Shown here: one piece after another, positions 37,778 to 44,016 of the stretch
How the letters are laid out: every line of letters starts with the position of its first letter
Position numbering within the stretch: position 1 is the first letter of the stretch
Assembly: GCA_017479645.1 (NCBI GenBank)
Contig: JAFVBZ010000048.1
Location: 6,045 to 70,044, forward strand
Reading direction: 5' to 3'
DNA length: 64,000 bases
From: Ruminiclostridium sp.
GTDB taxonomy: Bacteria > Bacillota > Clostridia > Oscillospirales > Ruminococcaceae
Program-made: the position numbers and the translations under genes
Notes under the pieces: model-generated
What the model saw: the letters and a program-made list of their open reading frames with translations, nothing else
What the model was told of the DNA's origin: nothing
The model's database searches: none

Positions 37778-38133
37778 CAGTCATCAGTATAAAGAGATTT
37801 TATATGCTGTAAGCCAGATTATTAAGGTTATGGTGTCCCGGAATGTTTGCCTGTTCCACGGCATGATCGACAAACTTGTGAAAGACCTGACTTCTGCATA
37901 TTAATGGTATTTATGCGTTGCTCCGGAACAGGCAGCAGGAAGCGGGAAAGCGGAAGCTGTGACAAATGCGTACTCAATAACTGCGCTTAAAGCAGTTAAT
38001 GGCTTTTCTTACAAGAGAACTGCATAAACCTTTTTCAAATATATTGAAATATCAGACCACACCGAGATATAAACCACTTGCAATTGCTTTGTTATTGTGA
38101 TATAATGTTCATATTGCAAAAGGGGGCAGGCTT

Positions 38134-39564
38134 GTGAAACGTCTCTTAATTATTGGTGTTTCTGCTTTATTGACTGTAATGATGTGCGTCGGTTTCTTTG
38201 ATTGTAAAACTTTCGCATATAACGATATATTACAGGACGATGATATATATGAAAGGATAGACGAGTATCTGCGTTCATCTGCCGTAAACGCCCATATTCC
38301 TGCGCTTACAGCAGCTATCGCAAACAGCGATGAGATACTGTTCGCAAAAGCCTACGGGGAATGTGAAAGCTGTGATGATCCTTTTGTTCTCGGGTCGGTC
38401 AGCAAATCATTTACAGCGGTATGTATCATGAGGCTTGCCGAGCAAGGGAAAATAAGGCTGAATGACCGCATTTCGGTTTATCTGAAAGATATTGCCGACG
38501 GAGACCGTATAACGGTAAACCAGCTTCTCAATCATACAAGCGGTCTCGGCGAGCATCAGAACCTTGAAAACTGCCATATCGTCAACGAGCAGGGAGTGCA
38601 TTGTTATGCCAATGTGAACTACTCATTGCTTGGAAAAATAATCGAGCAGGTCACAGGGATGTCCTTTGAGGAATATGTTACCGGGAGTATTATTGAACCA
38701 TTGGAACTTGCAAATACTGCCGCTTCATATGAAAAAAGCACCGCGAACGGTCTGATAGACGGGCATACCGATTACTGGGGATTTTCTGTAAAAAGCAGCC
38801 CCAAATATCCTGTGTCTGACAACGCATGGATAACTGTCCCTGCCGGATATATATCGTCATCGGCAAATGACCTTGCACGGTATCTGCAAATGTATTTGCG
38901 CGGCGGTGAGGGTATCATTTCACAGCAGAGCATAGATACTATGTTCTATGAGGATACCGTTTTTGTTGACGACGATGTTCCGTTCTGGTACGGATACGGC
39001 TGGGCAACTGTAAAAGAACCGCTGCCGGAACCGGTTCTCCGTCACAGCGGGTTGGTGGAAACGGGAACATCCTGTGTATTTATTATTCCCGGGAAGGATA
39101 TCGCCGTTGCTTTTACCGCAAATGTCAACGACTATTTTGTCACCAACGAAATGATGGACAGCCTCGGCTGGGGAGTAATACTTATGCTTCTCGGTGAAGA
39201 GCCGAATATGATATCCCGGGACGCATATATTCTTGAACACTTAAGGATAGATCTTATAATGCTTGCTGTTTTTGCGGCATCGCTGATACCGATGTTCTTT
39301 ATCGCCGGATATAAAAAGCGCGTCAGTCAGAAGCATTTCATATCGGCTGCTGCAAGTATGCTGATCGTCAATATTATATTCCCGGTGTTTATACTTCTGA
39401 TCGTGCCGGTTTTCTTCAAGACGCCCCTATGGGTCGCAAAAGCATTCGTGCCAGATGTGTTTATAACGGCTGTAGTTTCATCTGCTGTATTGTTCGCCGG
39501 CGGAATAGTTAAGGCGGCAATACTGATCAAAGCCATAATCAAGCGGTCAGGATCTGACATATAG
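38134..39564 (+). CDS. Beta-lactamase-family serine hydrolase with signal peptide and C-terminal TM helices
   Basis: SxxK (SVSK), LLNHTSGL, YAN, HSG; promoter TTGCAA-17-TATAAT. Confidence 0.85.
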   Translation: MKRLLIIGVSALLTVMMCVGFFDCKTFAYNDILQDDDIYERIDEYLRSSAVNAHIPALTAAIANSDEILFAKAYGECESCDDPFVLGSVSKSFTAVCIMRLAEQGKIRLNDRISVYLKDIADGDRITVNQLLNHTSGLGEHQNLENCHIVNEQGVHCYANVNYSLLGKIIEQVTGMSFEEYVTGSIIEPLELANTAASYEKSTANGLIDGHTDYWGFSVKSSPKYPVSDNAWITVPAGYISSSANDLARYLQMYLRGGEGIISQQSIDTMFYEDTVFVDDDVPFWYGYGWATVKEPLPEPVLRHSGLVETGTSCVFIIPGKDIAVAFTANVNDYFVTNEMMDSLGWGVILMLLGEEPNMISRDAYILEHLRIDLIMLAVFAASLIPMFFIAGYKKRVSQKHFISAAASMLIVNIIFPVFILLIVPVFFKTPLWVAKAFVPDVFITAVVSSAVLFAGGIVKAAILIKAIIKRSGSDI

Positions 39565-41577: not shown

Positions 41578-42270
41578 TCATGCACTTCCCTTCTTTGTTT
41601 TCAGTTCATACACGAGCATCACCGCAAACCAGATGATCATGCTTTCGCTCATCAGACCGTTGTTGAATGCAAGTCTGAATGCGCCGTCCGGCATGAACAG
41701 CGTTATGCCTTTAAGCAGTCCGAAAAATATCAGCACATTCGTAAATGCAAAAGGTTTCGGGAAAGCGGTAAAACCCCGCACCTGCAAATAAAACCAGTAC
41801 ACGAACACCGGAAGCATGAATGCTTCGCTTGCGGCTATCACCCACGATGTGTTCTCGTACAACAGCAAACATATCGCTCTGATATCGTGCAGATCATAGC
41901 CGAAGTCCGGGCTCTGCGAAAGTCCGCTGTAAAGCACAAGTATCATTATGTAGTAAAGGTGCAGCGCCAGCCACGGCGTAAGACCGAAAGCATTCAGATA
42001 GTGATACACTTTCCGGCGCTTTTCATCTGTGATATAATTCTGCACCGCGAACAGCGCAATACCATAAAGAATTATACCCGGAAAAGCAAGCGCCATTGCG
42101 AGCGTGAACCTCCACTGTGGGATCTGCGCGGTTCCTGTTGTGAGCCAGTTCAGCATATAAACAGTATCATATTCCCCGCCGCCGTACATCATCAGCCAGT
42201 CACCCGTGCCGAAACACAGACAGCCGAGCATTCCGCAGATCAGCGCCGCGGCTGTTTTCTTACTTGTCAT
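41578..42270 (-). CDS. Polytopic membrane protein (DUF6796-like), paralog 3
   Basis: 230 aa; GMLGCLCFGTGD and FGLTPWLALH. Confidence 0.8.
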   Translation of the reverse strand: MTSKKTAAALICGMLGCLCFGTGDWLMMYGGGEYDTVYMLNWLTTGTAQIPQWRFTLAMALAFPGIILYGIALFAVQNYITDEKRRKVYHYLNAFGLTPWLALHLYYIMILVLYSGLSQSPDFGYDLHDIRAICLLLYENTSWVIAASEAFMLPVFVYWFYLQVRGFTAFPKPFAFTNVLIFFGLLKGITLFMPDGAFRLAFNNGLMSESMIIWFAVMLVYELKTKKGSA

Positions 42271-43234
42271 ATATCTTATGCACCTCTTCCCAATCCGGCA
42301 TCGCAGCTCTCATTCCGTCCCACACCGGCATTCTGTATTCCGGTGCGGCATCGCGCAGCTTGTTGAACTCACGGTCAAGGTACTCCATTTCGGTCACGGC
42401 ATTCCTGCAATGGTCGGTGGCCGCCAGCTCCCCAACAAAGGTTTTTGCCATTGCACGAAGCGCCAGATTGGTTGCTGTCATTTTAGCTCCGCTCTCAAAG
42501 TATGTCTCATCTCCGGCAGGACATATCTTTATCCCCGCTCTTTTTATCAGACCGTAGGCTTCCTTTGCTGCAGCGGTGATATTGTTCACCTCCTGCTTTG
42601 ATGCTGTACGAAGGTTACAGCCCCGCTTGTAGCTCAGATAAACTATCGGCAGAATAAATGCGGCATGGCAGTACAGCCAGCCCTCCATGTCGTCCATGAA
42701 CCCGATTCCGTATTTCGAGCCGGAAAGCGCTGTCCGCAGCGCAGTTTCGTCCCGTGTGGACGGGAGAGTATGCAGCCCGCCGACAACAAGCCTGCTGCTG
42801 CCCCACCTTACACAGATCGTGTGATTGCCCTCGCGCACGCCGCCGGTACCCTGAAATCCGAACAGCAGGGTCTTGTCATCACCCGCAAGACGGTGAAATT
42901 CACGCTCGGTATCTGCTGCGCAAAGATTATTTCCCACAAGCACAAACAGTGGAGCGTTCACCTTGGCGATCACCGGCAGGAGCGCAGTCTGCTGCTGTCC
43001 CTGCATTATCGAAAACACGATGTCATAGCGTTCGTTTTCGTCCGCTTTCCCAATGACTTTCGGACGGTCGATCGTTTTCTTTTTTTGCAGCTTATGCTTT
43101 ATGCGAAGCCCGTATTTTCCCAGTATTTTTCGTGTTCTTCCCCGTGCGCAGACAGTCACGTCATTTCCCGCACGACACAGAACGTGTGTCAGATATGAGC
43201 CTATGACTCCGCAGCCGTAAACAAGAATCTTCAT
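42260..43234 (-). CDS. Ketopantoate reductase-family oxidoreductase
   Basis: VYGCGVIGS Rossmann motif, ARG, WLYCHAAF. Confidence 0.85.
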   Translation of the reverse strand: MKILVYGCGVIGSYLTHVLCRAGNDVTVCARGRTRKILGKYGLRIKHKLQKKKTIDRPKVIGKADENERYDIVFSIMQGQQQTALLPVIAKVNAPLFVLVGNNLCAADTEREFHRLAGDDKTLLFGFQGTGGVREGNHTICVRWGSSRLVVGGLHTLPSTRDETALRTALSGSKYGIGFMDDMEGWLYCHAAFILPIVYLSYKRGCNLRTASKQEVNNITAAAKEAYGLIKRAGIKICPAGDETYFESGAKMTATNLALRAMAKTFVGELAATDHCRNAVTEMEYLDREFNKLRDAAPEYRMPVWDGMRAAMPDWEEVHKIYDK

Positions 43235-43251: not shown

Positions 43252-43303
43252 GTTAGCTCCAGCTAACTTTATTTATAATAGCACATTGCCATCTCTTTGT
43301 CAA
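43252..43303 (-). promoter_or_regulatory. Sigma-A promoter plus GTTAGY operator (copy 4)
   Basis: TTGACA-17-TATTAT on the minus strand, then GTTAGCTCCAGCTAAC (43252-43267). Confidence 0.8.
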
Positions 43304-43529
43304 TATATTAATGAAAAAACCAACATCTTAGCCGTGCCGGCCCGGACACTCATGGTTTCGGGCATTTATAGAAGATCCCGTCACGATATCTGCCCTTGTC
43401 CAAATGAACTTTCCGGGCGGCATGGTATTCCTTCCCGTTTCCCGCATCGTACCGCTTCTCGTACTATTATGCCGGATTGTCAATGCTTTCATGATAATTT
43501 TCTGTTACAATGATATGACAGTAAAACTA

Positions 43530-43590
43530 TTGACTTTTTTACAAAGCTGTGTATAACAGAGCGGAGTTAGCCTCAGCTAACACAAGGAGG
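43530..43590 (+). promoter_or_regulatory. Orphan promoter, GTTAGY operator (copy 5) and RBS with no following ORF
   Basis: TTGACT-16-TATAAC (43530-43557), GTTAGCCTCAGCTAAC (43566-43581), AAGGAGG (43584-43590), no start codon at RBS distance. Confidence 0.7.
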
Positions 43591-43599
43591 CGCGAGAAC

Positions 43600-43873
43600 G
43601 GCAGCAGCCGTATTGCTGCCACTTATAATAAATGTGTCCTCAATAACTGCCTTTTGGCAGTTATTGGCTGAAAATCTGCAAAACAGATTTTCAGATGTTG
43701 TTTAAATGCGCCTGTGGTGCATTTAAACAACGGACACATTCCTTGATGTCAAGCTCATTTCGTCCTTCGGACGAACAAAAGTGCAAGGAAAATCCTAAAA
43801 TATATAAATTTTCCTTGCACTTTTGCAGCCAATAAATTGCTTCAAGCTGCGCTATGAAGCAATTTGTTGGCTG
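43600..43873. other. Seven consecutive hairpins (structured ncRNA or MITE-like element)
   Basis: Stems of 7, 11, 11, 13+, 7, 18 and 19 bp, several separated by only 0-2 nt. Confidence 0.8.
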
Positions 43874-43884
43874 ATGAGCAGACA

Positions 43885-44016
43885 TTAAATATCGTCTAAC
43901 AGGCGACGAACCTCATCCTCTCCTCAGCGGTATCCACGCTTATAAGATGGAACATAAAACGTTCCCTTGATATCACTTACAAGTTTGGTGTCCAATAGTA
44001 TTTGATTATCGTTCAT
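43885..44016 (-). pseudogene. N-terminal stub of a DUF262 (GmrS/ParB-like) gene
   Basis: MNDNQILLDTKLVSDIKGTFYVPSYKRGYR*GEDEVRRLLDDI*, matching the DUF262 P-x-YQR-x-Y-x-W motif with Q>K and W>TGA; intact TTGAAA-17-TATAAT promoter. Confidence 0.75.

Follow-up and report, generated by a model that had tools for sequence, protein, structure and literature searches.

The hairpin cluster studied here, located in the 64-kb stretch of DNA that was analysed as a whole (the window), is very probably a 254-bp copy of a non-coding, non-autonomous DNA transposon (MITE) carried by a sub-clade of a genus of uncultured rumen Clostridia. The family is new, while the element class, the prokaryotic MITE, is already well known; two traits of the family are nevertheless noteworthy, namely a target that resembles a -10 box and a strongly covarying fold with two junctions. 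A preliminary description of the cluster had proposed either an undescribed structured non-coding RNA or a non-autonomous mobile element linked to deletions on both sides. The second proposal was supported by multiple copies, terminal inverted repeats (TIRs), target-site duplications (TSDs) and empty sites, as well as by flanks that resemble those of a proven recombination joint. A striking structure is thereby explained as a mobile repeat and not as a new RNA gene.

Six of the seven hairpins form one repeated unit

All seven inverted repeats reported for the cluster were recovered. A repeat finder returned H1 (43600-06/43614-20, 7 bp), H2 (43641-51/43656-66, 11 bp), H3 (43668-78/43684-94, 11 bp), H4 (43697-712/43716-731, 16 nt, 94%), H6 (43776-93/43808-25, 18 bp) and H7 (43826-44/43855-73, 19 nt, 95%), and H5 (43759-65/43769-75) was recovered in the fold. 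The initial view of a single seven-hairpin element held for H2 to H7, which together make up one 254-bp repeated unit, but not for H1. This 7-bp hairpin (43600-43620, plus strand) lies in the left flank, outside the repeat; since it is shared by no other copy and conservation begins only at 43632, we regard it as ordinary flanking sequence.

The boundaries of the unit were defined by end-to-end alignment of 33 distinct full-length copies. Positions 1-254 of the nhmmer model map onto 43632-43885 of the window, and the ends conserved across copies start at 43632 (ATGTGTCC) and stop at 43885 (GCAGACAT), which sets the orientation of the window copy (plus strand). Length variants of the 254-bp element range from 44 to 323 bp. 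The loop of H6 varies in length by 1-3 nt, which would break any reading frame, and we thus consider the element non-coding. A literature search with its signature strings returned unrelated primers only.

Termini, target-site duplications and target

The family ends in imperfect TIRs of 12-16 bp, ATGTGTCCTCAA... and ...TGAGCAGACAT, with the consensus ATGTsTsCTCAwCArC. The left end ATGTGTCCTCAAYAAC and the reverse-complemented right end, ATGTCTGCTCATCARC, agree at 11-13 of 16 positions, making these repeats both short and imperfect. The value is 11/16 in the window copy (left TIR ATGTGTCCTCAATAAC, 43632-43647; right TIR GCTGATGAGCAGACAT, 43870-43885; both on the plus strand) and 13/16 in the CAACAAC/CATCAAC subfamily. 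At the right end, GATGAGCAGACAT shows little or no variation among the 33 full copies, and in copies other than that of the window the duplicated target hexamer follows directly 3' of it.

TSDs were counted in the 63 complete copies for which flanks were available. They were perfect in 44 copies (41 of 6 bp and 3 of 7 bp) and of the form TAAnnA, the 6-bp sequences being TAATTA (15 copies), TAATAA (9), TAAATA (8), TAAGTA (3) and others. One mismatch was seen in 17 copies and a larger mismatch in 2. The earlier statement that the element shows no clear TIR or TSD is thus incorrect for the family; what stands is that in the window copy the two hexamers at the TSD position differ, with TAATAA on the left (43626-43631), which reads TATAAT together with the preceding TA, and TAAATA on the right (43886-43891).

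Among 144 distinct left ends, the last eight bases of the left flank were T56 A74 T90 A97 A93 T54 T77 A95 (per cent), giving the flank consensus TATAATTA, and the right flank was without bias past the TSD. The target is therefore an asymmetric TATAAWWA, i.e., TA[TAAWWA], whose core is palindromic but stricter in one half. Insertion orientation follows this target, since 25 of the non-palindromic perfect TSDs start with TAA and 1 is reversed.

Orthologous empty sites prove insertion

The two flanks of filled sites were joined and then searched in the other genomes on hand, which identified orthologous empty sites. Five filled/empty pairs were obtained (L098/G000 C8, L097/C174, L121/C148, L117/C215 and L096/C178+L059). 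At L098, the filled site reads TTGACATAAACAAGCGGGTATGGTA[TAATATA]-element-[TAATATA]AACATATCTCAACAGGAGG...ATG, and its empty counterpart on G000 C8 reads TTGACATAAATCTACCGTTATGGTATAATATAAACAG...AGGAGG...ATG. Every pair represents a conserved TTGnnn-17-TATAAT promoter located tens of bases 5' of a ribosome-binding site (RBS) and start codon, with the filled copy lying between the -10 hexamer and the expected transcription start. Since the orthologous sites are empty in other species, insertion of the element is proven.

One further promoter, 5' of a gene that by eye resembles PolI / 5'-3' exonuclease, is occupied at the identical position in two species (G000 C205 and L015:4188-4442). An ancient orthologous insertion was considered and rejected because the two copies have separate perfect TSDs (TAATTA and TAATAA, respectively). 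With each copy bounded by its own duplication, these are independent insertions at one promoter, which thus represents a hot spot.

Copy number, host range and variants

The whole-assembly search of the metagenome-assembled genome (MAG) containing the window gave 40 matches, which BLAST and nhmmer resolved to about 16-20 loci. Many of these loci sit at contig ends, so the repeat breaks the assembly. Carriers made up 6 of 25 genomes of the genus in a first sample. The 16-mer end motif ATGTSTSCTCAWCARC was found in 19 of 108 genomes of the genus, with up to ~48 ends per genome, and the reversed control pattern had no match across the same 108 genomes. No match was obtained in 16 genomes from other families of the order, and a scan of viral contigs likewise gave 0 matches. 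An exact-match scan over 185,579 species genomes returned at least 114 stretches; among the matches listed, all sources were rumen or gut MAGs (Ruminiclostridium sp., Ruminococcaceae UBA3215, uncultured Ruminococcus and Clostridia). Copy number and distribution, which the preliminary description had named as a check, thus show the element to be dispersed, multi-copy and patchy among relatives. With the consensus and the end definitions, this repeat, at which assemblies of rumen Clostridia MAGs break, can be masked and annotated.

Many copies have lost internal sequence and measure 44-216 bp, and some insertions are nested, as is typical of MITE decay. In addition, subfamilies recombine modules.

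Several variant forms were observed. In the 322-bp variants (G000 C205:8513-8834, C118:1-322 and C103:32728-33049; L055, L108 and L110), a 68-bp insert consisting of two further perfect hairpins is nested in the H4 loop. Perfect palindromes of 44 bp occur alone in intergenic DNA (L021:4336-4379, L024, L051, L066 and L109), in the order left end, H2 and inverted left end, which corresponds to unit A alone; their flanks match poorly, and they may be either deletion products or independently mobile half-units. Finally, at L040:2170-2200 a 10-nt left end (ATGTGTCCTC) stands alone immediately 3' of TTGATA-17-TATAAT-TA, in front of an ABC-transporter operon; it could be a footprint or the product of an extreme deletion.

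The pairing of the hairpins is maintained across subfamilies

The RNA fold of 43590-43885 had a minimum free energy of -154.2 kcal/mol, compared to -70.5 +/- 4.7 kcal/mol for dinucleotide shuffles (z = -17.8), and the fold of the minus strand was almost equally stable (z = -15.9). Two closing stems that had been overlooked group H2-H4 and H5-H7 into one four-way junction each, and the two junctions are linked by TCCTTG. In Domain A (43632-43739, plus strand), the stem 43632-38/43733-39 encloses H2 and H3, with the arms given above, and H4, folded as 43698-712/43716-730. In Domain B (43746-43885, plus strand), the stem 43746-58/43874-85 encloses H5, which has a UUCG loop, H6, both again with the arms given above, and H7, folded as 43826-47/43851-73. 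Since both ends recur in inverted form within the central block, the element can be read as a pair of fold-back units.

Covariation was analysed in the 33 distinct full-length copies, which are 73-100% identical to the window copy and were aligned without difficulty. RNAalifold returned the two-junction fold with 99 pairs, 31 of which show compensatory double changes, the kind of evidence among homologs that the preliminary description had asked about. Such changes affect 9 of 11 pairs in H3 and 11 of 15 in H4, with 7 further covarying pairs in H7 and 2 in H5. With the structure held fixed, 97.1% of the cells were paired, compared to 89.8% in column shuffles (0/500 as high) and only 35-40% when the partners were slid by 1-3 columns out of the true register; the covariation score was 0.220 versus 0.089. 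Variation is centred on H3, H4 and the outer part of H7, where the subfamilies have essentially unrelated sequences and the hairpins are still perfect. The parts conserved in sequence are the termini, H2, the central GGACACATTCCTTGATGTCAAGCTCAT, the H6 stem, the H7 apex and the closing stem of Domain B.

The hairpin pairing is thus certainly maintained across subfamilies. It is kept either by selection, which could act on RNA, on single-stranded DNA during transposition or on harmlessness inside leaders, or by quasi-palindrome template switching, an established mutational mechanism in which one arm is corrected to match the other. Should selection on the fold be confirmed, the element would provide a useful model for how mobile elements become tolerable inside 5' leaders. 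Local covarying hairpins in place of a simple fold-back count against the MITE reading, because cut-and-paste transposition of double-stranded DNA has no need for them.

These observations bear most directly on an alternative that we consider distinctly unlikely, that of a mobile cis-acting RNA module. Here, selection would act at the RNA level on a self-folding 5' leader or small RNA, for example through mRNA stability or protection from Rho and RNases, and the spread of the element would be functional and not parasitic. The 31 covarying pairs are in line with such a module, as is the loop of H5, which is UUCG or UACG on the plus strand and hints at RNA without deciding the matter. However, the stems are near-perfect and bulges are nearly absent from them, which suits DNA palindromes. 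Moreover, mismatches on the plus strand are about equally often of the G.U type (about 46 cells in 16 columns) and of the A.C type (about 45 cells in 22 columns), so neither strand is favoured.

Association with promoters and neighbouring genes

Left flanks were scored for a full promoter, defined by a -10 match of at least 5/6, a -35 match of at least 4/6 and a spacing of 16-18 nt. Such promoters were present in 36 of 144 left flanks but in only 3 of 80 in the opposite orientation, and shuffled upstream sequence gave about 11 (maximum, 21) compared to the 36 observed. The left-flank matrix further shows TTG at -35 and TG at the extended -10. In the genome containing the window, a -35 match accompanies 31.5% of 1009 unoccupied TATAAWWA sites, compared to 49% of 59 occupied ones, and the TA at -8/-7 is also enriched at non-promoter sites (T54, A76). 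Given the frequency at unoccupied sites and the retention of TA away from promoters, the association with promoters results mostly from a DNA target that mimics the -10 box. Enrichment at promoters beyond this target preference is at most modest.

The downstream gene is co-oriented with the element in 41 cases and opposed in 23, and the distance from element to start codon is typically 20-130 nt. Both the co-orientation and the prevalence of the sense orientation at promoters would suit a mobile RNA module. Against it, about a third of the copies lie antisense to the next gene or between convergent genes, many copies are truncated, and orientation tracks the asymmetric DNA target even off promoters. 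A structured RNA gene as the primary identity of the element, the other proposal of the preliminary description, was not supported either: both strands form stems that pair almost perfectly, mismatches of the G.U and A.C types are about equally frequent, copies lie in either orientation relative to genes, and deletion derivatives are numerous.

For the MITE, we propose that a preferred target mimicking an extended -10 box would place a quarter to half of the copies between the -10 hexamer and the transcription start of real promoters. The element would insert left end first and leave the host promoter intact, and the gene behind a promoter-site copy would gain a 254-nt leader that is predicted to fold by itself into two four-way junctions. 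The family provides a clean natural case of a transposon target that coincides with the -10 element, with insertion between -10 and +1 and the promoter kept. A more far-reaching version, which seems to us rather doubtful, would make the element a mobile leader that homes to promoters: its target would have evolved toward the extended -10 box, RNA polymerase would start within its first bases, and its fold would have been selected so that the leader is inert or beneficial through resistance to Rho and RNases. If this were true, the element would be a transposable 5'-UTR module rewiring dozens of promoters of a rumen lineage, possibly via an unrecognised enzyme.

The recurrent neighbours of the copies belong to large paralogous families, with SBP_bac_3/permease fusions at 18 loci, hybrid histidine kinases at 12 loci, and SpoIIE. 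The paralog classes are thus transporters, kinases and phosphatases (copy neighbourhoods L009-L122), and these are raw counts into which family abundance is not factored.

Search for a mobilising partner

The MITE would be moved in trans by a transposase that makes staggered cuts (DDE type), and the searches described here found none. Pairs of TIRs 0.4-6 kb apart belonged either to two MITEs or to two remnants with only host genes, those of an ABC-transporter operon, between them. All 38 left ends that lacked a nearby right end, inspected together with their downstream sequence, proved to be deletion derivatives or to be followed by host genes. In the best-assembled carrier (G014, a relative in 30 contigs) and in 8 fetched regions, ends located with the TIR 11-mer were MITE-paired, remnants or chance matches. 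Overall, no autonomous element with the ends of the MITE was seen in G000, the 114 fetched loci or G014 (0 per 149 ends), and self-BLAST of the MAG revealed no assembled multi-copy insertion sequence (IS). In a phyletic profile, genes of DDE_Tnp_1 (PF01609) and rve (PF00665) did not track the MITE-bearing genomes. Since MAGs often lose IS copies, the missing parent IS is weak evidence.

We also weighed a hairpin-dependent single-strand transposon end, either palindrome-associated as in the IS200/IS605 type or with a guide RNA as in the IS110/IS1111 type, which would be recognised via folded DNA or RNA. Such an end would account for the subterminal hairpins, the asymmetric ends, the orientation-specific insertion beside a conserved motif and the covariation of the stems, but it is very improbable given real duplications of 6-7 bp of variable bases, confirmed against empty sites, and the presence of TIRs. 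Furthermore, no gene for a Y1 transposase, TnpB/IscB, DEDD recombinase or reverse transcriptase adjoined any examined copy, so that the neighbours that the preliminary description had thought worth looking for (Y1, TnpB/IscB and reverse transcriptase) did not turn up. The Rfam scan that it had suggested matched no family: at the gathering threshold, Rfam 15 gave 0 matches in the 64-kb window, HEARO/omega-type models included, and at a permissive threshold only noise was obtained, the best hit being a plant miRNA model with 23 bits against a threshold of 90.

A structure unique to this locus and serving the neighbouring genes, for instance a terminator stack or a leader that, like a riboswitch, can pair in alternative ways, has virtually no probability left: although TTATTGGCTG (43661-70) is indeed the exact 10-nt reverse complement of CAGCCAATAA (43826-35) and H3 is terminator-like in the window copy, copies of the unit occur at dozens of loci unrelated to one another, the T-tail of H3 is missing in other subfamilies, and the competing long-range stem claimed from this complementarity is paired in 67.9% of cells, which is at the level of shuffles (204/500), and shows no covariation, making it a coincidence of one subfamily.

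Comparison with known systems

Prokaryotic MITEs are small, non-coding and multi-copy, carry TIRs and TSDs, and occupy AT-rich, intergenic targets (PMC10969869). Their transcripts are predicted to form very stable stem-loops, and they act as substrates for recombination (PMC10969869). The family described here agrees with these elements in size, lack of coding capacity, AT-rich targets, intergenic position, TIRs and TSDs, copy number, stable predicted structure and a role in rearrangement. In contrast to them, it has short, imperfect TIRs, a target motif coinciding with the -10 hexamer, and an interior made of six local hairpins in two four-way junctions and not of one long fold-back; moreover, no parent IS was found for it.

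The closest working analogues appear to be the pneumococcal BOX elements and the Correia elements of Neisseria. Like our family, BOX (boxA-boxB(n)-boxC) and RUP/SPRITE combine hairpin modules in variable number between conserved ends, occur in leaders and intergenic regions of Firmicutes, are co-transcribed with neighbouring genes and are found inserted beside or into each other. In this comparison, which was made by description and not by sequence, the rumen Clostridia element differs in module grammar, TSD (TAAnnA), target and host. The Correia elements (CREE) share the TA-rich sites near promoters and the co-transcription into leaders, with hairpins that in the Correia case affect mRNA processing. 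They differ in duplicating TA and in having their own outward promoters, an IHF site and 26-bp TIRs, whereas the rumen Clostridia MITE keeps the host promoter, and a scan detected no internal promoter in it.

IS200/IS605 palindrome-associated elements and REP/BIME with RAYT are likewise hairpin-rich, asymmetric and orientation-specific, but they lack TSDs and depend on Y1, whereas the rumen MITE has TSDs and no linked Y1. An IS200/IS605-derived element, which would have no TSD, lie 3' of a fixed tetra- or pentanucleotide and have Y1 or TnpB nearby, was accordingly rejected, since TSDs are present and no such neighbour was found. REP/BIME, imperfect palindromes of 20-40 bp with a GTAG-type head, were rejected as well, because the unit is 254 bp long with TIRs and a TSD and the head was not seen.

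Flanks of the window copy

The only complete copies mismatched at two or more TSD positions (2/63) are the window copy and L037. At L037:5555-5808, the left flank corresponds to an empty TAATAA site on G000 C29 (~14290) and the right flank to an empty promoter site, TAATTT, on G000 C176 (~7129). Its flanks thus represent two separate empty sites in G000, the genome containing the window, which proves L037 to be a joint of MITE-MITE recombination and demonstrates that copies of the family mediate genome rearrangement. Since the flanks of the window copy are mismatched as in this proven joint, and gene remnants lie on both sides, the simplest reading, and a plausible one, is that the window copy was left by recombination between two copies with deletion of the intervening DNA, in agreement with the deletions suggested in the preliminary description. 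Alternatively, the flanks could fail to match because the MAG assembly was joined wrongly at the repeat.

The left flank contains a promoter-like TTGACT-17-TATAAC, previously taken for an orphan promoter; with TATAAC as its -10, it failed the consensus scan, and the AAGGAGG of this flank has no start codon. Two short stretches within 43368-43538 are 82-84% identical to G000 C196 7230-7325 and 6156-6216, and since these lie ~1 kb apart there, the left flank is the decayed remnant of another locus. To the right, a frameshifted N-terminal DUF262/GmrSD-like remnant of ~40 codons (43896-44013, minus strand, FYVPSYKRGYR motif) ends at the right edge of the element, and its promoter-like site lies at 44100-44072 (minus strand; 11/12 in the promoter scan). 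The gene had been named a truncated DUF262; the assignment is only weakly supported, a read-through of about 50 aa matching PF03235 with E = 0.046, below the threshold. A search for the flanks of the window copy in relatives recovered neighbouring outer genes and scattered fragments only, and not the state before the deletion.

The palindrome GTTAGC-N4-GCTAAC occurs twice to the left of the element. One copy (43252-43267) separates the -10 region of the minus-strand gene 42260-43234 from its RBS, and the second (43563-43583) follows a plus-strand promoter-like site at 43530 and is itself followed by AAGGAGG. Judged from this arrangement, the pair looks like the shared operator of a divergent gene pair whose plus-strand gene is gone.

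The window also contains a degenerate fragment of a second copy (37966-38003, plus strand), consisting of a left end and an H2-like hairpin. It is located ~130 bp upstream of a 476-aa gene that starts at 38134 and whose own promoter, TTGCAA-17-TATAAT, is unoccupied.
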